UHGV virus genome: UHGV-0222540
Direction: 5' to 3' (one strand)
DNA length: 10,280 nucleotides
Origin: a virus
Each line of letters opens with the position of its first letter. Positions within the stretch are counted from its first letter, which is position 1. The notes beneath the pieces are model-generated. The model did not search any database. It saw only the letters and a program-made list of their open reading frames with translations, and had not been told where the DNA came from. This document shows, in pieces, positions 1 through 10,280 of the stretch. Both the position numbers and the translations under genes were made by a program.

Positions 1-108
1 CGCCCCGGCAACAACAACCCCCGCCGGGGGATAAATCAGCCAGGCACCATACGCCAGCAAAAGCGCCCCCAGCACGCCCACCAGAGGCGCGAGAATCAGC
101 ATGATCAT
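1..108 (-). CDS. Hypothetical small hydrophobic protein, N-terminal 36 codons only (runs off window start)
   Basis: ATG at 108..106 with a GAGGT Shine-Dalgarno 5-9 nt upstream, 12 nt downstream of the terminase large subunit stop (120..122). Translation [36 protein letters not shown] is strongly hydrophobic. Not in the ORF track because no stop lies inside the window. Confidence 0.3.
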
Positions 109-119
109 AATTACCTCAG

Positions 120-1853
120 TTAAAGCGAGCGGATCCCATAGGACTCAATGTGGTCAGACAGCGTGTCTTCTTTCTCGTACAGCATGGCTCTGCCAACCGC
201 CATAATCAGCGCAACTGCACCATCGATTTTGTTTTCCGCCTGCTCTTTGACGGGCTTCACCACATCATCGTTACCCGGAATGGTTTTGCCGACCACGTTG
301 CCGATACACCAGGTCATGATGGGATTGCCATCATGATGAAAGCGCCCCGATTCAATTGCCGCTTCCAGCTCTTTCATCGGGTCGGACATGTTGGTGTAGT
401 TCTGAATGATAGTGATGGGGTTCAGGTCTTCATCAGCAAGGTCATGTGACAACCCGGTCGCCCCGAAGGGGTCAATGGGTGACTCACTGACCGGGCTGAT
501 TTTGTTCGCCGCTTTGGCCTCCTCGAGGATGTAGCGATAATCCACCTCCGCACCATCGGTAACGGTCAGAACGCCCATTTCCACCCATTTCTGAAAGCGT
601 TCGGCTGTCCGTCGATCTTCATTTTTCTCGACGCTGTACACCGTGTCATACGGTACCCAGAAACGCGGGGCCACACTGTAGTAATGCGTTTTACCGTCAA
701 TCTCGCGGGTATAAAGTCGCGCCATGCTGTTCATATCCAGCTTACGCGCCAGGTCAAAGGCCAGAATGCACGGCTGCCCCTCGAACTGCTCAAGGGTCAG
801 TGATTTATCCTCGCAGCTCTGCCAGCTCACCAGGTTGAAATACGCCGAACGCGCCGACACCCAGATATTGAGGTGTTTTGTTTTAAAGACGTTTGCCAGA
901 CGGGCGTTATTTTTCGCACGCTGCTGCTGACTTAACAAAAATTCGCGATAAACCGACACGCCAATATTCGGGTTAGCTTTTTCCAGCACCTGCGGGTCGG
1001 TCCAGTCATCGCCTTCGTCAACGGTATAGATGATCCCGAACAGTTCATCGTTGGGTACCGACCCGTTGAGCATCTCGATAACTTCCCGTCGCTTGTCGTA
1101 GCACGGCCCCTCAATGTTGTACCCGGCAGTAGTAATGGCCCACATCAGTGGCTGACGTCGCGCCCCCATCCCGGTAAGCATCGTGGTGTAAAGCGCATCG
1201 GTGGCGTGCTCGTGATATTCATCCACCACCGCACAGTGGGGTGATGAACCATCACCGGGGTTACCGATCAGCGGTTCAAACCGCGCGCCATCCTCCGGAC
1301 GGTTCATGTTTGAGGCGTTAACCTCAATCCCGAACGCTTCCGTCAGCATGGGCGTGCGTTTACACATCAGTCGCGCCGGGCGAAAGACTTCCCACGCCTG
1401 TTTCTCTGTCGTGGCACCGGAATACACTTCCGCGCCAAACTCGTTATCACAGGCAAAACAATACAGGGCGACACCGGCAGAGATTGCCGATTTGCCGTTC
1501 TTACGGGGGATTTCGGTATACACCTCCCGGAAGCGGCGCAGCCGGGAGCCTTTATTGACCCAGCCAAACGCACAGCAGATCACAAAGAGCTGCCACGGCT
1601 CCAGCGTGATGGGCATCCTCTTGAATGCCCACTCACCCTTGGTGTGCGGCAACAGCTGAATAAATTTGGCGGCCCGTTCAGCCAGGTCCTTGTCGAAGCG
1701 GTAACGAAACGACTTACTTTTTTCCGCCATCAGGTCATCAAGATGGCGCTGGCAGGCCTGAATCACAAACTGGCAGGCAACAATCTTTCCGCGCACGACA
1801 TCCCGGGCATACTGATTGGCAGCATTTACGTTGGGGTAAGATTTCCGGCTCAT
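120..1853 (-). CDS. Phage terminase large subunit
   Basis: 577-aa ORF with a Walker A-like motif (PRKNGKS) near the N-terminus. Start overlaps the stop of the upstream small-subunit gene by 4 nt, typical terminase coupling. Size and position after HNH and TerS fit an HK97/P27-type packaging module. Confidence 0.92.
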
Positions 1854-2344
1854 GATTCGATAATTTTCAGAAACGGGTTAGTGGCTTTCTTCTGCCCCGC
1901 CAGGCCAATCAGACGCTGGCGGCTGCTGGGGTCGAGTCCGAGCATTGCCCCCGTACTGCTCATCTCGGACTCCTGTTCTTTTTTGGCGGTCAGCTCCGGA
2001 TTTTTGACCATGCCGCCCATTGCACCGGTGATGGTGTTGCCCTGTCTGGCAATATTTTTCACGGCACGTCGCCAGAACTCATAGGCCACGCACCACCGCT
2101 CAAGCACTGCGAGGTCAGTCACGCACAGCAGGCCCTGACCGCAGAGTTCTTTGGTTGTCAGTTGCCACATGATCGTGGCGAGAGGGAGCTCTTCTTCAGC
2201 GAACCACTCCGGTGGCTCAACACCTTTGATGGGCGTAAAAACGGGTTCATCTTTGTTCAGGGCTCGCTTGCCGGGGTTTCCGGCCAGCGCCTTGCGCGCC
2301 GTTGGCTTGGGGCGACGCCCGGAACGCCCCGCCGTTCCAGCCAT
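1850..2344 (-). CDS. Phage terminase small subunit (P27-family-like)
   Basis: The ORF opens with GTG at 2353, but the ATG at 2344 has a better AGGAG Shine-Dalgarno about 9 nt upstream. The Gly/Arg/Lys-rich N-terminus ([31 protein letters not shown]) is characteristic of P27-family small terminases. Stop overlaps the TerL start. Confidence 0.85.
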
Positions 2345-2469
2345 ATGCGGCACTCCTGGTTAAATTTCATTTTTCGCGGGTATAAAAAAACGATGGGGCG
2401 GGCAGTCCGGAAGACGTCAGGTCACAGGGATTTGACCCGCCCCTCCCCTCTGGCAGTGGGAACTGGTTC
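2345..2469. other. Candidate cos / packaging-initiation region
   Basis: Non-coding gap between HNH and TerS, the position of cos in HK97-like phages. Contains a G-rich element GGGGCGGG (2395..2402) with an inverted partner CCCGCCCC (about 2439..2446), loosely like the lambda cohesive end GGGCGGCGACCT, plus an A-tract (TATAAAAAAA). Positional inference only. Confidence 0.3.
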
Positions 2470-2820
2470 TTACTTCAGCCGTTCACGGGCCGTCTTCGCC
2501 TTATGACACGGCCAGCACAAACTCTGCAGATTACTGTCGACATCAGTGCCGCCATGCGATTTAGGGATGATGTGGTCAACGGTCTTCGCCTCACGCACCA
2601 CACCAGCACGCAGACATAACTGACACAGGCCTTTGTCACGCTTCAGGACACGCGCGCGGATACTGTCCCACTTCGAACCGTAGCCGCGCTGATGACGTGA
2701 CAGGCCTGGTTTGTATTGCTTCCAGCCTTCGCTTTTGTGGCTTTCGCAATAGCCTGACGGGTCAGTAGTGGTATTGCGGCAACCGCGAACGCGGCAGGCT
2801 TTTGGTGTACGTGGTGGCAT
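2470..2820 (-). CDS. HNH endonuclease (terminase-associated, HK97 gp74-like)
   Basis: Cys pairs (CRVRGC, CQLC, CWPCH) and the H-N-H signature (TVDHIIPKSHGGTDVDSNLQSLC). Likely start is the internal ATG at 2820 (MPPRTPK...), which has an AAGGAAA Shine-Dalgarno; the ORF-track start at 2907 would overlap the divergent gene. Sits directly upstream of TerS. Confidence 0.9.
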   Translation of the reverse strand: MPPRTPKACRVRGCRNTTTDPSGYCESHKSEGWKQYKPGLSRHQRGYGSKWDSIRARVLKRDKGLCQLCLRAGVVREAKTVDHIIPKSHGGTDVDSNLQSLCWPCHKAKTARERLK

Positions 2821-2893
2821 TAATTGTTTCCTTAAGCCATTACGATGCGTCTGAAAATGAGTTAATCTGAAAATTCCTTCACTATGCGAGAGC

Positions 2894-3199
2894 ATGACAA
2901 TGGTCATAGGACAAGAAGATCAGAAATGCTGCCCGGCTTGCAATTCAGATGCGACCTGGCAGAACCGTGATACCGCTTGGTTAATTAGATGCCCGATGTG
3001 TGAAACATTTCTCATCAGGAATTCCACCATTGAAATTTTGCGAAGTGACGTTGTGTATCGGACATTAGCTGGTGACCTTCTCAAACAAGAAGGTGGGTGT
3101 GACTACATGCTTACAAGAGGAAGGCTTGCGAACTTCGCGAAAACCCAGCTCCCAAAATCAAAGTTTCAGGAATACTTCCCTGGTGACAACTACGAATAA
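2894..3199 (+). CDS. Hypothetical small protein with N-terminal C4 zinc-ribbon motif (cargo/moron)
   Basis: 101-aa ORF on the strand opposite to the late operon. CPAC-x18-CPMC motif (CxxC...CxxC). No signal peptide. Visibly more AT-rich than flanking late genes. Followed immediately by a 14-bp perfect-stem hairpin. Start could be ATG 2894 or 2900; Shine-Dalgarno is weak (GAGAG). Confidence 0.6.
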   Translation: MTMVIGQEDQKCCPACNSDATWQNRDTAWLIRCPMCETFLIRNSTIEILRSDVVYRTLAGDLLKQEGGCDYMLTRGRLANFAKTQLPKSKFQEYFPGDNYE

Positions 3200-3240
3200 G
3201 CCATTACAAAGCCCACCCGCAGATGAGCTTTGTAATGGCT
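3199..3240. terminator. Long hairpin between convergent genes (14-bp perfect stem, 14-nt loop)
   Basis: GCCATTACAAAGC (3200..3212) pairs with GCTTTGTAATGGC (3227..3239), extendable by an A-T pair at 3199/3240. Overlaps the stop codons of both the plus-strand small ORF and Rz1. No strong U-tract on either side, so terminator function is uncertain. Confidence 0.4.
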
Positions 3241-3562
3241 ACTGTGAGTTGCGTGACGTTTCTATCTTCCTGATACTGGCCTTGTCGATGTTGCACTGGC
3301 CCAGCGCCGAAAGCAGGCTCACATTCAGATCCAGACTGGCCCCATAGGTCAGCGGGTCGGGAATGACTGGCTGGGGCGTTTCAGTGGTCAGGCTTGTTGG
3401 CAGCGGTACCGCCGGAACCGGCACGTAAACTGTTCGCGTACTTCCGCAACCGGTCAGCAGCGGCAGCAGGCACATGACGTGAAGCACAATCATCATCCGC
3501 AACAGCCACTTTGATATCTTCCTGGGTTCTCTGTGACTCCAGTGCGATCTGCTGTTTTGCAT
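3239..3562 (-). CDS. Rz1-like outer-membrane lipoprotein spanin (o-spanin)
   Basis: Out-of-frame ORF overlapping the 3' end of Rz. Lipobox LLTGC followed by a proline-rich mature region (VYVPVPAVPLPTSLTTETPQPVIPDP). Start is ambiguous (ATG 3562, 3496 or 3493). Extends past the Rz stop, i.e. overlapped rather than embedded. Confidence 0.75.
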   Translation of the reverse strand: MQNSRSHWSHREPRKISKWLLRMMIVLHVMCLLPLLTGCGSTRTVYVPVPAVPLPTSLTTETPQPVIPDPLTYGASLDLNVSLLSALGQCNIDKASIRKIETSRNSQ

Positions 3563-3773
3563 GCTGGTTAGCCTCTATAACTGTATTGATGATTTGCAGT
3601 GATTGCAGAACGTTACGGGTAATGGCAGTTGCTGATTCAGCATTTCGTACAGCCTCATCAGCACGCTCCTTTTCGTGCTGATATTTGCTGTAGTAATGTC
3701 CAGCAGACCAGATGAAGGAACCAATGACGCTAACAACGAAGGCAACAATAACCAGCTTATATCTCAGCCTCAT
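3381..3773 (-). CDS. Rz-like inner-membrane spanin (i-spanin)
   Basis: N-terminal transmembrane helix (LVIVAFVVSVIGSFIW) followed by a charged, probably coiled-coil region. Start overlaps the endolysin 3' end. GGTGGGG Shine-Dalgarno upstream of ATG 3773. Position immediately after the endolysin. Confidence 0.8.
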   Translation of the reverse strand: MRLRYKLVIVAFVVSVIGSFIWSAGHYYSKYQHEKERADEAVRNAESATAITRNVLQSLQIINTVIEANQHAKQQIALESQRTQEDIKVAVADDDCASRHVPAAAADRLRKYANSLRAGSGGTAANKPDH

Positions 3774-4233
3774 TTACTACCCCACCAGCTTTTTTAAATC
3801 GGGCAATCAGGTCACCGATTTTATGTTCATACTGACCGTAACCTGCACCAGGTAACGACGCCCAGATATTGCTGCAACGGTCGATTGCCTGACGAATACT
3901 GCCGCGGTCAATCATCGGTAAAGCACCACGCTCTTTAATCTGCTGCAGAGCTACAGCGTCCTGGCTTTCTGGAGAAAAATCTTTCAGGCCAAGCTGTTTA
4001 CGGTAAGCATCCCACCAGCGTGAAAGAAGCTGGTAACGTCCGGCAGCTGTTGATTTGAGTTTGGGGTTTAGCGTGACAAGTTTGCGAGGGTGATCGGAGT
4101 AATCAGTGAACAGTTCGCCACCAACAATAACATCATAACCGTGGTTACGTGTCGGTTGTCGCCCGTTATCCGTTCCTTCTGACCATGCCACCATATCCAG
4201 GAAAGCTTTACGCTGGGAATTTAGTGCCTGCAT
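3757..4233 (-). CDS. R: Endolysin, lambda R-type lytic transglycosylase
   Basis: 158 aa, near-identical over most of its length to lambda R as I recall it (QRKAFLDM-AWSEGTDNGRQ-TRNHGYDVIVGGELFTDYSDHPRKLVTLNPKLKST-AGRYQLLSRWWDAYRKQLGLKDF...), including the catalytic Glu in WSEGT. Strong AAGGAG Shine-Dalgarno 8 nt upstream of the ATG. Confidence 0.95.
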   Translation of the reverse strand: MQALNSQRKAFLDMVAWSEGTDNGRQPTRNHGYDVIVGGELFTDYSDHPRKLVTLNPKLKSTAAGRYQLLSRWWDAYRKQLGLKDFSPESQDAVALQQIKERGALPMIDRGSIRQAIDRCSNIWASLPGAGYGQYEHKIGDLIARFKKAGGVVNEAEI

Positions 4234-4236
4234 AAA

Positions 4237-4572
4237 TTACTCCTTCGAGCTACCAAATTTGTTACCGATTACTCGCATTGCAGCCCCACGAATAGCATCG
4301 ACACCGATCAGCCCCACGCCACCACCAATGGCAACAGAAAGCGATTTAGGCCATCCGACATATTCAAGAGCGGATGCAAAGGTCAGCGTCAGAGCGCCAC
4401 ATAGCAAAATCTCGAGCGTTTTTCGCTTCCAGCCACCACCACCGCCAAAATAGGCGATGCGCAAACCAGCCATAACGATCGACATAATCACTGCACCCAG
4501 CGGTGTGTCTCCACGCCACCAGCTCTGAAACAACTCCAGCCAGTCCGGCCAGGTATTTGGGTTATGAGACAT
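4237..4572 (-). CDS. Holin, class I, distantly lambda S-like
   Basis: Three predicted transmembrane segments and a charged C-terminal tail. The C-terminal two-thirds aligns loosely with lambda S (GLRIAYFGGGGGWKRKT... vs AYLRGRYNGGAFTKT...). Sits immediately upstream of R. Likely start is ATG 4572 (MSHNP..., GAGGTGA upstream) rather than the ORF-track start at 4668, which would overlap the methyltransferase. Confidence 0.8.
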   Translation of the reverse strand: MSHNPNTWPDWLELFQSWWRGDTPLGAVIMSIVMAGLRIAYFGGGGGWKRKTLEILLCGALTLTFASALEYVGWPKSLSVAIGGGVGLIGVDAIRGAAMRVIGNKFGSSKE

Positions 4573-4611
4573 TTCGTCATCTCTCACCTCGCGATATTTG
4601 CGGGTGCTGTG

Positions 4612-4641
4612 TTGGAAATAAAAAGGCCACGCAACGTGGCC
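4612..4641 (-). terminator. Rho-independent terminator (minus strand) between the methyltransferase and the holin
   Basis: GGCCACG-caa-CGTGGCC hairpin (4625..4641), 7-bp GC-rich stem. On the minus strand it is followed directly by TTTTTATTTCC. Lies 8 nt downstream of the methyltransferase stop. Confidence 0.55.
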
Positions 4642-4648
4642 ACCAGAA

Positions 4649-5701
4649 TTATTTCCCCACCAGTTCACTTACCTCTTTCACCGTCTGATTAAACCGCTCT
4701 GACTCAAGTTCAACACCTAACGCCCGACGCCCCAGCGCCATTGCTGCTTTTATTGTGGAACCGGATCCCATAAAGAAATCAGCAACCAGATCACCAGGTC
4801 GACTACTGGCATTGATTATTTGCCGGAGCATATCCGCCGGTTTCTCGCACGGATGTTTACCCGGGTAGAACTGAACGGGCTTATGCGTCCAGACATCGGT
4901 ATAAGGCACGGAGACTGATACGGAGAAATAGCGCCGGAGAGATTTAAACTCATCCAGCAATTCAGAATATTTGCGATTCAGTGAATCATAAGATGCCACC
5001 AGCTGGTGGTGTGGTTGTTCCAGTTGTTGTTCCTGAAACTTCTCTGCCGCTATACGGGAAAACAGTGCCTGTAACTTCCGATAGTCAGCCTCATTCGGCA
5101 ACTGCCACTGACTGGCACCAAACCAGTGGGAAACCATATTTTTCTTACCTGTGGCTTCGGCAATTTGTTTTGCCGTTATACCCAGTTCGGCACGAGCATC
5201 CCTGAAATACGATATCAGCGGTGCCATTATGTGCTGTTTGAGTTCCCTTTCTTTTGCCGCATAGCCGTCACTTTTGCCGCGATATGGCCCCTGGTAATGT
5301 TCAGCAAACAGAACGCGCTCTGTGGCAGGAAAATATGCGCGCAGACTTTCTTTATTACACCCATTCCAACGTCCGGACGGCTTCGCCCAGATGATATGGT
5401 TAAGCACGTTGAAACGTTCACGCATCATGATCTCAATATCAGATGCCAGGCGATGCCCACAGAACAGGTAAAGGCTTCCGGCAGGTTTCAACACCCGCCA
5501 GAACTGGGCCAGACAGTGGTCCAGCCACTTAAGGTAATCTTCGTCCCCTTTCCACTGATTGTCCCAACCGTTAGGTTTCACCTTGAAGTAAGGCGGATCG
5601 GTAACAATCAGGTCAATGGAATCATCAGGCAGGGACTGAATAAAATGCAGGCAATCAGCGTTGATTAAATCAACACTGTTTATTTTTACAGTATTTTTCA
5701 T
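4649..5701 (-). CDS. DNA methyltransferase, beta-class N6-adenine (or N4-cytosine) MTase, apparently orphan
   Basis: 350 aa. Catalytic motif IV DPPY (IVTDPPYF) near the N-terminus and AdoMet motif I FxGxG (DFFMGSGSTIKAA) near the C-terminus; this IV-then-I order defines beta-class amino-MTases such as CcrM and M.HinfI. No adjacent restriction endonuclease candidate. Confidence 0.9.
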   Translation of the reverse strand: MKNTVKINSVDLINADCLHFIQSLPDDSIDLIVTDPPYFKVKPNGWDNQWKGDEDYLKWLDHCLAQFWRVLKPAGSLYLFCGHRLASDIEIMMRERFNVLNHIIWAKPSGRWNGCNKESLRAYFPATERVLFAEHYQGPYRGKSDGYAAKERELKQHIMAPLISYFRDARAELGITAKQIAEATGKKNMVSHWFGASQWQLPNEADYRKLQALFSRIAAEKFQEQQLEQPHHQLVASYDSLNRKYSELLDEFKSLRRYFSVSVSVPYTDVWTHKPVQFYPGKHPCEKPADMLRQIINASSRPGDLVADFFMGSGSTIKAAMALGRRALGVELESERFNQTVKEVSELVGK

Positions 5702-5851
5702 GGATCAGTAAGCGTAACTCTGGTAGGCTCACTCTGCTTTTGCGCTAAAGCAGTGGGCCGTGGTTCGCTTGTGACCAGTAAGCATGAGCGAATGGCTGGC
5801 AGGTGCTACCAACACCCACCAGCCGCCCATTTTCACAGCAGGAAACCGCCA

Positions 5852-6055
5852 TTACTGGCAGCGTCTGAATTTATTCCCATACCCGCCGTTATCCTTCGCC
5901 AGACCCGCCAGAACTAACTGAGTCAGTATTAACTGGCACCGGGCTTCGCTTACTCCGGTAGTTCTCGTCATCATGCGTGGCGTTACCCACTTGTCAGCAG
6001 GTAAGAAATGAAGGACTACGGCGGCGGTTTCTGTCATATCTTGCTGTTTTAGCAT
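5852..6055 (-). CDS. Hypothetical small protein (possible winged-helix-like); start uncertain
   Basis: ORF 5852..6079. The internal ATG at 6055 has the best Shine-Dalgarno (AAGGGA about 9 nt upstream); ATG 6079 and 6037 are alternatives. No recognised homolog. Co-directional with the late operon and divergent from the 339-aa cargo gene. Confidence 0.4.
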   Translation of the reverse strand: MLKQQDMTETAAVVLHFLPADKWVTPRMMTRTTGVSEARCQLILTQLVLAGLAKDNGGYGNKFRRCQ

Positions 6056-6079
6056 GTCTTTTTCCCTTCTGGTTAACAT

Positions 6080-6374
6080 GACATACCAATAACTCTTGTC
6101 TAAAAAGCCAGCAAGATAAAAAGTCAGTATTCACGACCACCAGCGTGTTTACTGTACTGCACCAAGTTTACAGGTACAAAAAAACCGCTCAGCGGCGGGT
6201 TTAAGCTGTGTGGCGAAGTAACCACTCTTAACACAGTAATCTAGAAAATGCGGACCGCGTTAGTGATTTTTATCTGTTTTTCCATTATTTTTTTGCCACA
6301 CAACTTAAAACGAAAAATAAAGCAGGCGTTGCCAAACCTCACGGTGACAGTTGGCTTAGAATGAGGACATACTT
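6080..6374. promoter_or_regulatory. AT-rich divergent intergenic region; likely promoters for the plus-strand cargo gene and possibly a displaced late-promoter module
   Basis: About 295 bp with no ORF and long A/T tracts (TTTTTATCTGTTTTTCCATTATTTTTTTGCC). Plus-strand candidate promoter: TTGCCA (6293..6298), 17-bp spacer, AATAAA (6316..6321). Shine-Dalgarno GAGGA (6363..6367) precedes the TTG start at 6375. Minus-strand -10-like AATAAT at 6289..6284. Promoter calls are by eye only. Confidence 0.3.
6178..6202 (-). terminator. Weak intrinsic-terminator-like hairpin plus U7 (minus strand)
   Basis: Minus-strand sequence CCGC-tga-GCGG followed directly by TTTTTTT. The stem is only 4-5 bp, so this is marginal. 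Lies in the AT-rich intergenic region upstream of the small ORF. Confidence 0.3.
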
Positions 6375-7394
6375 TTGGATAAGTTTGATGAGATTCATGT
6401 AGACATTGAATCTGAGCAGCAAGCCTTCGATTTGCTTGAAAGCTATCTTGATGGTTATGGTTTACCTGACAGTTTAAGTTTCAACGGATGGCCAAACCTT
6501 ACCATCAGATTAACCGGTGAAAAATTCAACAGATCGCTAACACCTTCAGTTATGAAGGGATTTGTTGAAATGCAAGCTCAAATCAACAAATCATATGCCC
6601 TTGCCAAGTACGGTGTCCCTGACGTCCGCAAACTGACCAAAGAAGAACTTGATGCCCTAGAAATAGAAGTTACGGTAGAACAGGGTTCTTCAATAGTAGA
6701 AATCAACATTGATGGCTTTTTAACCAAACTCACACAGGAACTTGTTGGTAAAATGAACGCAACTGAGATCATGTTTACTGTTCTCGGCGCAGCAGTCATC
6801 TGGGGCGGAGTAACAGTATTTAAACGGTTCTTGGACAACCGCAAAGATATTCGCCTTGCAGAAATTGCTAAGGATGGAGAGAAAGAACATCTCCGGACTA
6901 TGCAGATCATGAGCGAGCAAGAAACTAAACGCCTGCGGGTTATTTCAGAAATGATTGCGGAAAAACCACTTCTCGATAACATGGACCGTATGTCGTATGA
7001 CGCTAAAACCCAAATGGTCAAATCCTTTGTGCGTTCAGATAACGCTCAAATTGATGGCGTTACTATTGATTCTGAAATGGCGAAAGAGTTGGTTACGAAT
7101 GCTCGTAGACGTTCATCAGAAATGAGGATTGATGGTATTTACCGAATTGAAGAAGTCAATAATACTGACCCAGAGAGTTTCAAAGTTAAGGTCCGACGCG
7201 TAGATACCGACCAACGTCTAACCTGCGTAGTTCAGGATGTTTTCCTTGATGAATCCGGAAACAAAGAAGCATTGCAGCGAGCTGAGTGGGAAAGAAAGCC
7301 TGTACATTTGAGCATTAACGCAAAACACGTCGATGGTGACATTAAGTCAGCAGTAATTCTCTATGTTCGAGATGTGGAACAAAAGCCCGAGTAA
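6375..7394 (+). CDS. Uncharacterised 339-aa protein with one predicted central transmembrane helix (cargo gene; candidate phage-defence/exclusion function)
   Basis: Long ORF on the strand opposite to all flanking phage genes. Visibly AT-rich against GC-richer flanks. Likely TTG start at 6375 with GAGGA 7 nt upstream; the first in-frame ATG at 6552 has no Shine-Dalgarno. Acidic N-terminal region of about 130 aa, one hydrophobic stretch (IMFTVLGAAVIWGGVTVF) followed by a positively charged patch (KRFLDNRKDIR), then a roughly 185-aa charged C-terminal domain. No family recognised. Confidence 0.7.
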   Translation: MDKFDEIHVDIESEQQAFDLLESYLDGYGLPDSLSFNGWPNLTIRLTGEKFNRSLTPSVMKGFVEMQAQINKSYALAKYGVPDVRKLTKEELDALEIEVTVEQGSSIVEINIDGFLTKLTQELVGKMNATEIMFTVLGAAVIWGGVTVFKRFLDNRKDIRLAEIAKDGEKEHLRTMQIMSEQETKRLRVISEMIAEKPLLDNMDRMSYDAKTQMVKSFVRSDNAQIDGVTIDSEMAKELVTNARRRSSEMRIDGIYRIEEVNNTDPESFKVKVRRVDTDQRLTCVVQDVFLDESGNKEALQRAEWERKPVHLSINAKHVDGDIKSAVILYVRDVEQKPE

Positions 7395-7402
7395 TCGGGC
7401 TT
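7383..7402. terminator. Bidirectional terminator hairpin shared by convergent Q and the cargo gene
   Basis: AAGCCCGA-gtaa-TCGGGCTT, 8-bp stem; the loop contains the TAA stop of the plus-strand ORF. On the minus strand the stem is followed by TTTTGTT, 5 nt after the Q stop (7409..7411). Plus-strand downstream sequence is A/T-rich but not a clean U-tract. Confidence 0.55.
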
Positions 7403-7408
7403 CAATAA

Positions 7409-7786
7409 TCAATCTTTAACTTCGGGGTCCATCTCTAGACTAATTTCCAACATCGATAGGCAGCCATCAATAAACCCCTCAGCCATCTGTATCTCAATGC
7501 GTATTAGTTTCTCATCCTTTTTACGAGCCTTGGCGAGCTTTCTTTTAGAGATACCGTATAGGTAATGGGCAACAAGAAGCGAGTGTTCTTCAGGTCTTTT
7601 TTGCTTTAGACGAGCAAGACAACCTTCAATAATTAATGCATCACTATCTGAACAAGCCTGACGTGTTTTGCTTGTATAGGGAAGAAGCCCTTTAAACCCA
7701 GCAGCTATAGGCGAATAGTCTACCCCAGAACTATCACTCGCCGCCCATGCCCCCCAACGATCCAGAACCATCTGAATATCACGCAT
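7409..7786 (-). CDS. Q: Late antiterminator Q (QuuD-like)
   Basis: N-terminus MRDIQMVLDRWGAWAA... and C-terminus ...AEGFIDGCLSMLEISLEMD closely resemble E. coli prophage QuuD as I recall it. The ATG at 7786 has a GGAG Shine-Dalgarno about 9 nt upstream; the ORF-track start at 7801 is a TTG. Confidence 0.85.
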   Translation of the reverse strand: MRDIQMVLDRWGAWAASDSSGVDYSPIAAGFKGLLPYTSKTRQACSDSDALIIEGCLARLKQKRPEEHSLLVAHYLYGISKRKLAKARKKDEKLIRIEIQMAEGFIDGCLSMLEISLEMDPEVKD

Positions 7787-7803
7787 CAACTTTCTCCACA
7801 AAA

Positions 7804-8799
7804 TCAGGCCAGCACGCCAATTGCCAGCGCGCGATCGATAAAACGAAATATCAGCTCCAGCTGGGAGCCATACTTCTCTTCAAATGCCACGGTATCCGCA
7901 TGCAGCTCGTCGTGATGCTTTCTGCACAAAGGCAACACAAAGAGGTCATGCGCTTTTGTACCCATTCCCCCCTGACCGTGGCCTATCAGGTGGTGGGGAT
8001 CATCAGCGGGCTTTCCACAACATGCACACGGCTGTGTCTTAACCCAGCGCGTGTACTTTTCATTAACCCAGCGGCGACGTTTTGGGCGTAACATAAAAGA
8101 CTCCGGCGACTCCGGATCCACTTTCAGCGCCAGCACCTTTTTTGCCTTATCCTGGATGATGCTGGTGGCAGGAACCGAAGGCACAAGGTCACTTTCCCGG
8201 GTGACAGACGGCACAACAGGCTTTGGTAATCTCAGTGCCTTACGGGCTGCACTTTCCGGTAAGGCATCCGCCAGGTCATTACGAATCAGCCACCAGCACA
8301 GTTCCGGCATTGTCACAACGTGACTATCATCAAAACCGAGATCCCGACGCACAACAGACAACACCCAGCGGGCACAGTTATCCGTTGCCATTGATTCCAG
8401 CCGTTCCGTGAACTGATCGCGCAGCTGGTTATCACAGTGCCAGCACAGACGGATTGCGCCCGGAGCGTGTCGCATTGTGGTCATGTTCTCGCTGTGCCAG
8501 TCGGAATGAGGCCACTGGCAGCCTTTTTCACGAAGTAACCAGCTTTCAAGACATTCCACGCCACCAGCACGACGGATCACTGCCTCATTGCGGAACACGG
8601 CCCGAACAGCAGGATCATCCGCCAGCGGTTGTGATGCCGCGGGAACGGCACCACTGGCGAAAGATGAATAACGTTCCGGCTCAGGCTCCAGCAGTACACG
8701 CCCCTGCATAAACAGGGGCATCAGCTCTGAACCTGGTCTGAACAATACGATCCCCATACGCGGGGCTATTTCAGGGGTCAGTAGTGCTCTCACGGTCAC
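7804..8799 (-). CDS. Prophage DUF968-like protein with C-terminal HNH-like zinc-binding motif
   Basis: 331-aa ORF between the KilA-N gene and Q. C-terminal CACCGKPADDPHHLIGHGQGGMGTKAHDLFVLPLCRKHHDELH looks like an HNH/zinc-finger nuclease signature. Family assignment (YdfU-like) is from memory. The start at 8799 is GTG, one nt after the upstream stop, with no clear Shine-Dalgarno, so the true start is uncertain. Confidence 0.75.
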   Translation of the reverse strand: MTVRALLTPEIAPRMGIVLFRPGSELMPLFMQGRVLLEPEPERYSSFASGAVPAASQPLADDPAVRAVFRNEAVIRRAGGVECLESWLLREKGCQWPHSDWHSENMTTMRHAPGAIRLCWHCDNQLRDQFTERLESMATDNCARWVLSVVRRDLGFDDSHVVTMPELCWWLIRNDLADALPESAARKALRLPKPVVPSVTRESDLVPSVPATSIIQDKAKKVLALKVDPESPESFMLRPKRRRWVNEKYTRWVKTQPCACCGKPADDPHHLIGHGQGGMGTKAHDLFVLPLCRKHHDELHADTVAFEEKYGSQLELIFRFIDRALAIGVLA

Positions 8800-8800
8800 C

Positions 8801-9610
8801 TCAATGAACGGTATCGAGCAACTTTAACAGCTCAGGGAATCGGGATTCGAAGAAATGCGGCTGCGTCTCGCGCGGATTTGCGGGACTGGTGATGTTCTTG
8901 CCGAACATGCAGCCTTTCGCCGTCAGCGACCAGAATTTTTTGATGTTGTTAATCGCAGTGCGGCTGTATCGTTCACGTTGTTCAACGATCCCCAGCTTCG
9001 CCATCTGGTGATATGCCTGATTAGCTGTCAGGCGGATACCATACTGCTTCAGCAGTGCACTCAATGATAGCGTGGGGCGGCTTGAGCCATCAGGCGCGTC
9101 AGCAGGAGCATCAATGGCATAGCGCGGTGCCAGATTCGGTAAGCCAACAGCCTCCTGGAGTTTCTGACAGGCACCAAGCACTGAAGAGTTAGACAGGTTT
9201 AACTCCCGGCGCATAAAGTCCAGCAGGATCACGCCAGCCTGCATCTTGTCAGCAGCCTGTCCGGATAATTTTTCCGGTGCGCTGGTTACCATATCGAAAG
9301 TACGGATCACCTTCAGATGGAATGACGGGCTGATCCACATTGCATAGGCATACACCAGTTCCTTGCAGACATACGTTCCCCGTTCATTTCCCCCATGAAT
9401 CACACTCACCGGGTCAACACCCAAATTCTGGGTGTTGGTCAATTCATGAACAAGCTCAACAGTTTGTTGGCTGGAAAGAAACTTTCCCGGCTCCTTGGTT
9501 CTGGCATTTGCACCAGATGCTACTGCTGCGCGATGCAGATCGTTCAGGCTGTAACGCCCATAAGCATCACGACGAACTTCAATACCATCAATGACCATCA
9601 GATTATTCAT
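8801..9610 (-). CDS. KilA-N domain protein (Roi / antirepressor-like)
   Basis: N-terminal region (VIDGIEVRRDAYGRYSLNDLHRA...GTYVCKELVYAYAMWISPSFHLKV) has the conserved pattern of KilA-N domains found in phage Roi/antirepressor proteins. ATG 9610 with AGGAG Shine-Dalgarno upstream. Confidence 0.8.
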   Translation of the reverse strand: MNNLMVIDGIEVRRDAYGRYSLNDLHRAAVASGANARTKEPGKFLSSQQTVELVHELTNTQNLGVDPVSVIHGGNERGTYVCKELVYAYAMWISPSFHLKVIRTFDMVTSAPEKLSGQAADKMQAGVILLDFMRRELNLSNSSVLGACQKLQEAVGLPNLAPRYAIDAPADAPDGSSRPTLSLSALLKQYGIRLTANQAYHQMAKLGIVEQRERYSRTAINNIKKFWSLTAKGCMFGKNITSPANPRETQPHFFESRFPELLKLLDTVH

Positions 9611-9629
9611 ACTTCGTTTCTCCTCTTAA

Positions 9630-10019
9630 TCAGGCGGCTGCACCCGCCGTTTTCTCGTACTTACTGATAGTGATCTCGACCTTCCCTTCCGGGATAACCG
9701 GTCCCCACTCCACCAGCATTCTTTTCACCTGACTGTCGTCTTCCCACACACCCGCGTGGGTCAGGGCGTCAAACAGCGCCTTGTTATAGTTGTCCAGATC
9801 GCGGATCCGGTTATCCGGAGGAAACAACACGATCTCCACTGAAGCAGGTGCCGACGTTGGTTTCGGCAGACGACGTAACTGCTCAACTATTGCTGCGCAC
9901 GCCGCGCTCTGGAATTTTCGCCCCGCCGCGCTTATCAGACTCTTACCAGCAAACGCCCCTTTGTTGGGGTGTCGCCAGTACGTGTTCACGCTGGGCGGGA
10001 AAGGCAAGATCAGCTTCAT
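9630..10019 (-). CDS. rusA: RusA-family Holliday junction resolvase
   Basis: 129 aa. N-terminal LPFPPSVNTYW and the catalytic-region pattern RIRDLDNYNKALFDALTHAGVWEDDSQV closely parallel E. coli RusA (RRRDLDN...AFDALTKAGFW.DDAQV). Confidence 0.9.
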   Translation of the reverse strand: MKLILPFPPSVNTYWRHPNKGAFAGKSLISAAGRKFQSAACAAIVEQLRRLPKPTSAPASVEIVLFPPDNRIRDLDNYNKALFDALTHAGVWEDDSQVKRMLVEWGPVIPEGKVEITISKYEKTAGAAA

Positions 10020-10091
10020 ACTTTCAGGCCTCTCTCATGTAACCAGTGGGCTGCACGCAGCCTGGCGTTTTCCTCACCGGCAAGCAGTGCG
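9974..10091. repeat. Left arm of a perfect 118-bp inverted repeat
   Basis: 9974..10091 is the exact reverse complement of 10163..10280, checked base by base. First mismatch is at 10092/10162. The arm covers the rusA start and its upstream region. Confidence 0.9.
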
Positions 10092-10162
10092 CGGATAATC
10101 CCGACCGCCTCGCTGTCGTCGTCCTTCACCGCGGTATGAAGCGTTATCCCCCGGGCCACGCC

Positions 10163-10280
10163 CGCACTGCTTGCCGGTGAGGAAAACGCCAGGCTGCGTG
10201 CAGCCCACTGGTTACATGAGAGAGGCCTGAAAGTATGAAGCTGATCTTGCCTTTCCCGCCCAGCGTGAACACGTACTGGC
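10163..10280. repeat. Right arm of the inverted repeat (runs to window end, may extend further)
   Basis: Reverse complement of 9974..10091. Contains a plus-strand copy of the rusA 5' end (ATG at 10236, MKLILPFPPSVNTYW...) with the same Shine-Dalgarno. The 71-bp spacer 10092..10162 is unique. Confidence 0.9.

Follow-up and report, generated by a model that had tools for sequence, protein, structure and literature searches.

The window, which is the whole 10,280-nt stretch of DNA analyzed here (virus genome UHGV-0222540), consists from position 1 to 10162 of ordinary prophage DNA of the SfII/SfV/mEp460 type. This part is collinear in one piece with Escherichia coli TUM11352 (98.3% identity) and is 99 to 100% identical to many prophages. 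Its genes are listed in Table 1, together with the parts of a long perfect inverted repeat at the right-hand end. The RusA protein matches PF05866 over profile positions 1 to 123 of 124 (E value 6e-15; 56.4 bits against a cut-off of 22.8), and the first 46 nt of its gene (9974 to 10019) lie within the left arm of the repeat. The neighboring gene, for a LexA_DNA_bind-like protein, is present only as a 3′ remnant. In its native form this gene encodes 108 aa over the equivalent of positions 10016 to 10342, with PF01726 covering residues 1 to 65 (E value 3e-19), and the junction between positions 10162 and 10163 cuts away the whole of this DNA-binding domain. The 87-aa chimeric frame that runs off the window matched no Pfam family. 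Because the gene order and the profile matches place the LexA-like gene here, the breakpoint falls inside an early (nin-like) regulatory gene. The earlier note had located the repeat at the early/late boundary of the prophage; this placement was wrong, as the LexA-like gene is part of the nin-type early region and precedes rusA, with Q lying much farther downstream.

Table 1. Genes of the window and components of the terminal inverted repeat
Feature	Position	Strand	Remarks
ymfR′ (partial)		−	
Large terminase	120–1853	−	
Small terminase, P27 family		−	
HNH endonuclease		−	
Lysis genes		−	
N6/N4 DNA methyltransferase	4649–5701	−	N6_N4_Mtase profile
Q		−	
DUF968	7804–8799	−	Profile match
KilA-N	8801–9610	−	Profile match
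rusA, RusA-family Holliday-junction resolvase	9630–10019	−	Intact; PF05866; annotated as RusA in collinear genomes and in phage SfII
LexA_DNA_bind-like gene, 3′ remnant	10016–10162	−	48 codons and stop
Left arm	9974–10091		Native prophage DNA in its normal place; identical to contig L004 (see text) and collinear with 212 contigs
Spacer	10092–10162		71 nt of native LexA-like coding sequence; matches native sequence up to base 10162
Right arm	10163–10280		Non-native, exact reverse-complement copy of 9974–10091; ends with the window
Mirrored rusA start	10235–10279	+	ATG and 14 codons, MKLILPFPPSVNTYW; mirror rule p → 20254 − p

Three further features of the window were recorded. A 339-aa open reading frame at 6375 to 7394 (+), between Q and the DNA methyltransferase gene, lies on the strand opposite to all other genes of the window. 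It has no Pfam match above the cut-off (best, FNIII-A_GpJ with 18.6 bits against 27) and no PADLOC match, while the exact protein occurs on more than 1,000 contigs whose named sources are E. coli, Salmonella, and Citrobacter, with cluster relatives also in Leclercia; its appearance is that of a moron-type cargo gene. A 17-nt inverted repeat that looks like a terminator (3199 to 3215 and 3224 to 3240; 94% complementary, 8-nt loop) separates the HNH endonuclease gene from the lysis genes. The KilA-N protein gave a weak, short PADLOC match to the candidate defence family PDC-S22 (E value 1.6e-5, 37 residues), which probably reflects a shared domain only.

The two arms of the terminal repeat are each 118 nt long and 100% complementary, with 71 nt between them, as found by a repeat search and confirmed by a script that checked exact reverse complementarity. 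The earlier note had described just this arrangement, 118-bp arms around a unique 71-bp spacer with the right arm running to the end of the window, and it is borne out in each respect. The inner limit of the arms is a true mismatch, base 10162 being C where the complement of 10092 would be G. Their outer limit is set by the end of the window alone, and 118 nt is therefore a lower bound on arm length. Since perfect 118-nt inverted pairs have a computed expectation of about 1e-63 in a sequence of 10.3 kb, a chance origin of the arms is excluded; the second-longest inverted repeat of the window measures 24 nt at 75%. The left arm holds the 5′ end of rusA and the final 25 codons and stop of the LexA-like gene. 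Its copy on the right thus brings with it a second, oppositely oriented rusA start, as had been noticed, although its ATG is at 10235 to 10237 (the mirror of 10019 to 10017) and not at 10236. This mirrored start is a by-product of the copy, and its frame has room for 15 codons only before the window ends.

As single-stranded DNA, the 307 nt from the left arm to the window end are computed to fold into a hairpin of −182 kcal/mol (z = −32), a value that simply restates the perfect pairing of the arms. The existence of a long and perfect inverted repeat able to form this hairpin is all that speaks for a functional element, be it an invertible switch, a hairpin telomere, a pair of transposon or MITE ends, or a regulatory cruciform. 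Against it, the arms are ordinary coding sequence (the rusA 5′ end and the LexA-like 3′ end), the left arm and spacer form the native locus with no insertion, and the second copy is found in no relative. Nor does the 71-nt spacer encode anything on its own, and neither the arms nor the stretch between them holds a gene for a recombinase, transposase, or protelomerase. A hairpin telomere of the N15 type was rejected on three counts. The spacer, which occurs once in the window, has 34% identity to its own reverse complement and is non-palindromic, so that it cannot be a telomere resolution site; the site lies mid-genome in the relatives, which are integrated prophages with a P27-type terminase; and no protelomerase is present among the genes of the window or of contig L004. 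A site-specific invertible segment and transposon or MITE ends were likewise dismissed, the spacer being LexA-like coding sequence and the right arm being absent from all relatives. A functional inverted repeat is thus effectively refuted, and we give it a negligible chance of being correct.

The position of the breakpoint is exact. In the alignments with E. coli ACN002 and phage SfII, the identity holds up to base 10162. Beyond it the native sequence reads ACGCTTTATCG... and the window CGCACTGCTTGCC..., the latter being the reverse complement of the sequence from 10091 downwards; over a longer stretch the two read ACGCTTTATCGTGATG... and CGCACTGCTTGCCGG..., respectively. The native junction is GCCACGCC followed by ACGCTTTATCG, and where the window has the 31-mer of positions 10147 to 10177, the equivalent native 31-mer of the best relative contains GGGCCACGCCACGCTTTATCG. 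The first mismatch to that relative is at 10163. In terms of geometry, the sequence runs forward to 10162 and then continues on the opposite strand 71 nt back (from 10162 on the plus strand to 10091 on the minus strand). A table of microhomologies gave 0 nt at the breakpoint for either reading of the event, and no palindromic (k−1)-mer is present at the turn. The one stretch nearby that complements the 3′ end is GGCGT at 10064, and pairing there would give another junction. Microhomology or fold-back priming was consequently discarded as an explanation, there being no usable pairing at the junction.

We searched for the junction in other assemblies. None of the 5,426 complete E. coli genomes, 50,697 phage records, or 72,556 plasmids contains it, and every match in them stops at this point. 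A 106-nt junction probe was nowhere covered to at least 80% in the 5,426 E. coli genomes, and its matches span exactly positions 1 to 53 or 54 to 106. A 34-mer over the junction had no match at an E value of up to 10 in 28 Gb searched. The junction 40-mer had 0 exact matches in GTDB species representatives, IMG/VR, and metagenome contigs, while the positive control, the native 40-mer, occurred in 91 contigs from metagenomes and in at least 120 from IMG/VR. From 222 loci that were fetched, 219 alignments reach positions 10100 to 10120. The junction is where 212 of them end; the other 7 stop at contig ends (10132 to 10137), and none crosses the junction, so that no contig enters the right arm from the left; 206 remain native for at least 200 nt. 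Five candidate chimeric open reading frame products, ending at 10280 or assuming that the mirror continues, were subjected to exact look-up, and none is recorded except a 37-aa form. The seven contigs with this form were considered as fold-backs and rejected, because they are plain contig ends.

Two of the fetched loci are of particular weight. The best relative, L004 (JGI 3300045988, Ga0495776_150618), agrees with the window at every base for 10,162 nt and then continues natively into an intact 108-aa LexA-like gene, and L125 (IMGVR_UViG_3300000279_000163) has 0 mismatches over 7,893 nt and also continues natively. Since both match the window base for base, the exact prophage genotype is widespread, and since both stay native, an identical phage genotype exists elsewhere without the fold-back. 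The two contigs come from different samples, and sample 3300045988 holds at least 10 different IMG/VR contigs with the locus. L004 itself, to which a 145-aa HNH form known from a single contig had led, was also considered as a carrier of the fold-back; this was ruled out by its native sequence past 10162.

Absence from other genomes would be expected equally of a private, very recent real event, and a true inverted duplication in the prophage of one strain has to be weighed here. Such a duplication might have arisen if a break or stalled fork within the LexA-like gene were repaired by fold-back synthesis or illegitimate joining, a route that we hold to be improbable. Its product, which we consider just as doubtful, would be a copy of rusA, and of anything that follows it, in head-to-head orientation, and the mirror might extend far past the window. 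The perfect identity of the arms fits a very recent event, and the contig runs through the junction, as expected if the sample held no native continuation. Defective prophages, moreover, tolerate rearrangements. It also counts for a real duplication that cells tolerate a long inverted repeat better when a spacer, here of 71 nt, separates its arms than when the palindrome is spacerless, as is known from SbcCD and palindrome biology.

To our knowledge E. coli has no classical end-joining pathway, which counts against a real duplication. So does its occurrence in no other assembly searched, including those of the two sequence-identical phages, and so does the closing second junction that it requires, which would have to lie past 10280, none being visible in the window. 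Work on spontaneous inversions in Salmonella found inverted repeats at the endpoints of every one that was verified, the cut-off being at least 12 bp, and took junctions of short microhomology for chimeras (PMC3411829). Against this enterobacterial benchmark, the short inverted repeat expected of an in vivo inversion amounts to 0 nt at the junction of the window.

A further point against a real duplication is the place of the feature at the end of the window, close to where contigs habitually terminate. Within the LexA_DNA_bind-like gene, at the equivalent of 10132 to 10152, lie the ends of hundreds of NCBI draft contigs (loci L005 to L011; proteins P0121 to P0135), and the remnants that these contigs carry form clusters of 29- to 44-aa proteins annotated “LexA family transcriptional regulator, partial.” The seven contigs with the 37-aa form all end 3 to 8 nt past it. 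From these contigs and the partial LexA clusters it follows that short-read contigs coming from the rusA side routinely stop 10 to 30 nt from the breakpoint of the window, and with hundreds of draft contigs ending at 10132 to 10152, a contig terminus is to be expected here. Assembly GCA_008756645.1 contains two such contigs (20.6 kb and 365 bp), and the pattern suggests that co-resident prophages sharing the module routinely break short-read assemblies at this site. Another biological cause considered for the junction, a boundary between mosaic segments or modules, was rejected, since a search of complete genomes with the native sequence found boundaries at about 10342 and none at 10150 to 10165. 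The hotspot of contig ends therefore probably reflects k-mers that overhang the boundary of a repeat close by.

The junction might also have been made in silico, by scaffolding, gap closing, polishing, or window extraction, with no chimeric molecule involved. That the right arm reaches the window end agrees with this, as does the arm length of 118, which presumably would equal k−1 in a node-centric de Bruijn unitig built with k = 119. Assemblers of the de Bruijn and overlap types, however, need existing junction k-mers or reads, and no native sequence supplies even a 34-mer over the junction; the turn also offers no palindromic (k−1)-mer. We therefore consider a purely computational origin very unlikely, though less remote than a functional element.

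By exclusion and from its geometry, the right arm is most probably a technical fold-back that lies outside the biological genome; we put the probability of this reading at roughly 0.83. A strand with its end at 10162 would have been extended, in library preparation or in sequencing, along the opposite strand from a point 71 nt back, and one or more chimeric molecules or reads would have resulted. The assembler would then have taken the chimeric path and so extended a contig that otherwise would have stopped about here. The outcome would be what the window contains, native prophage DNA up to 10162 followed by the mirror image of 10091 to 9974. The sequences themselves show the structure, its exact breakpoint, the native state of all that lies to the left, the absence of the junction from the other collections, and the lack of microhomology. 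We infer that chimeric reads and the assembler together were the cause and that a contig ends at the window end or close to it; on this reading the feature is without biological function.

The earlier note had left two options, a fold-back chimeric assembly artefact and a very recent real inverted duplication or rearrangement, and of these the first is favored and the second less supported, because the junction is unique, has no microhomology, lies 10 to 30 nt from a habitual contig end, and sits at the window edge. The 100% identity of the arms and the extension of the right arm to the window end also speak for an artefact. In published work, a fold-back artefact read is one whose second segment lies on the opposite strand within 200 bp; such reads typically make up 1 to 4% of genomic DNA long reads and can be recurrent (PMC12870357). 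In the window, the second segment is on the opposite strand of the same locus at an offset of 71 nt, within the distance of about 200 bp, and independent assemblies do not reproduce the junction. Short-read libraries, both sonicated and enzymatically fragmented, have also been described to yield chimeras in which a strand is joined to its own inverted complement, for which the models invoke priming by a short natural inverted repeat (PMC10908179).

The absence of such a short inverted repeat at the junction counts against an artefact. A further counterpoint is that a de Bruijn assembler requires junction-bearing reads, and a chimeric path of low coverage normally loses to the native continuation. 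Terminal fold-backs were found in 0 of the 222 related loci, which include roughly 116 true contig ends; a terminal fold-back artefact is thus rare, which neither supports nor excludes the artefact reading. Because of these weaknesses (the path choice, the missing priming repeat, the rarity of terminal fold-backs, and the equal expectation for a private event), we leave a real duplication a small share of the probability.

The main import of a technical fold-back is for quality control: the final 118 nt ought to be cut off, and neither the second rusA start nor the chimeric LexA-like open reading frame should be annotated or interpreted. If the duplication were real, the prophage would be dead, with the DNA-binding domain of the LexA-like protein lost and the rusA-to-Q region cut off from upstream early transcription. 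It would then be a microhomology-free inverted duplication in a single strain, disabling an SfII-like prophage in an organism thought to be without classical end joining. This would have a modest bearing on the mechanisms of bacterial illegitimate recombination, and it would constitute no new kind of genetic element.

Compared with known systems, positions 1 to 10162 are the nin-like region of lambdoid prophages of the SfII, SfV, and mEp460 type (dam, LexA_DNA_bind-like gene, rusA, KilA-N, DUF968, Q) along with lysis and terminase genes, in the same gene order, and the right arm is the sole departure. With the fold-back inversions and palindromic duplications that arise in vivo after double-strand breaks or by template switching in replication (known from yeast, cancer genomes, and quasi-palindrome mutagenesis in bacteria), the window shares the head-to-head arrangement, the short asymmetric spacer, and arms that are perfectly identical at first. 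Those events, however, use inverted microhomology at the turn, of which the window has 0 nt, and neither a second junction nor a supporting genome was seen. Short-read fold-back models differ in relying on a short natural inverted repeat, which the window junction lacks; read-through from a template to its complement leaves no spacer, unlike the 71 nt found here; and the feature of the window was seen in assembled sequence, not in a read. The resemblance to fold-back chimera artefacts, as in Breakinator (PMC12870357), the PDSM model (PMC10908179), and Pacasus for whole-genome-amplified DNA (PMC6218980), lies in a second segment from the same locus, on the opposite strand and within 200 bp, and extends to arms identical to the native sequence and to a junction that lacks independent assembly support and stands at the window end.
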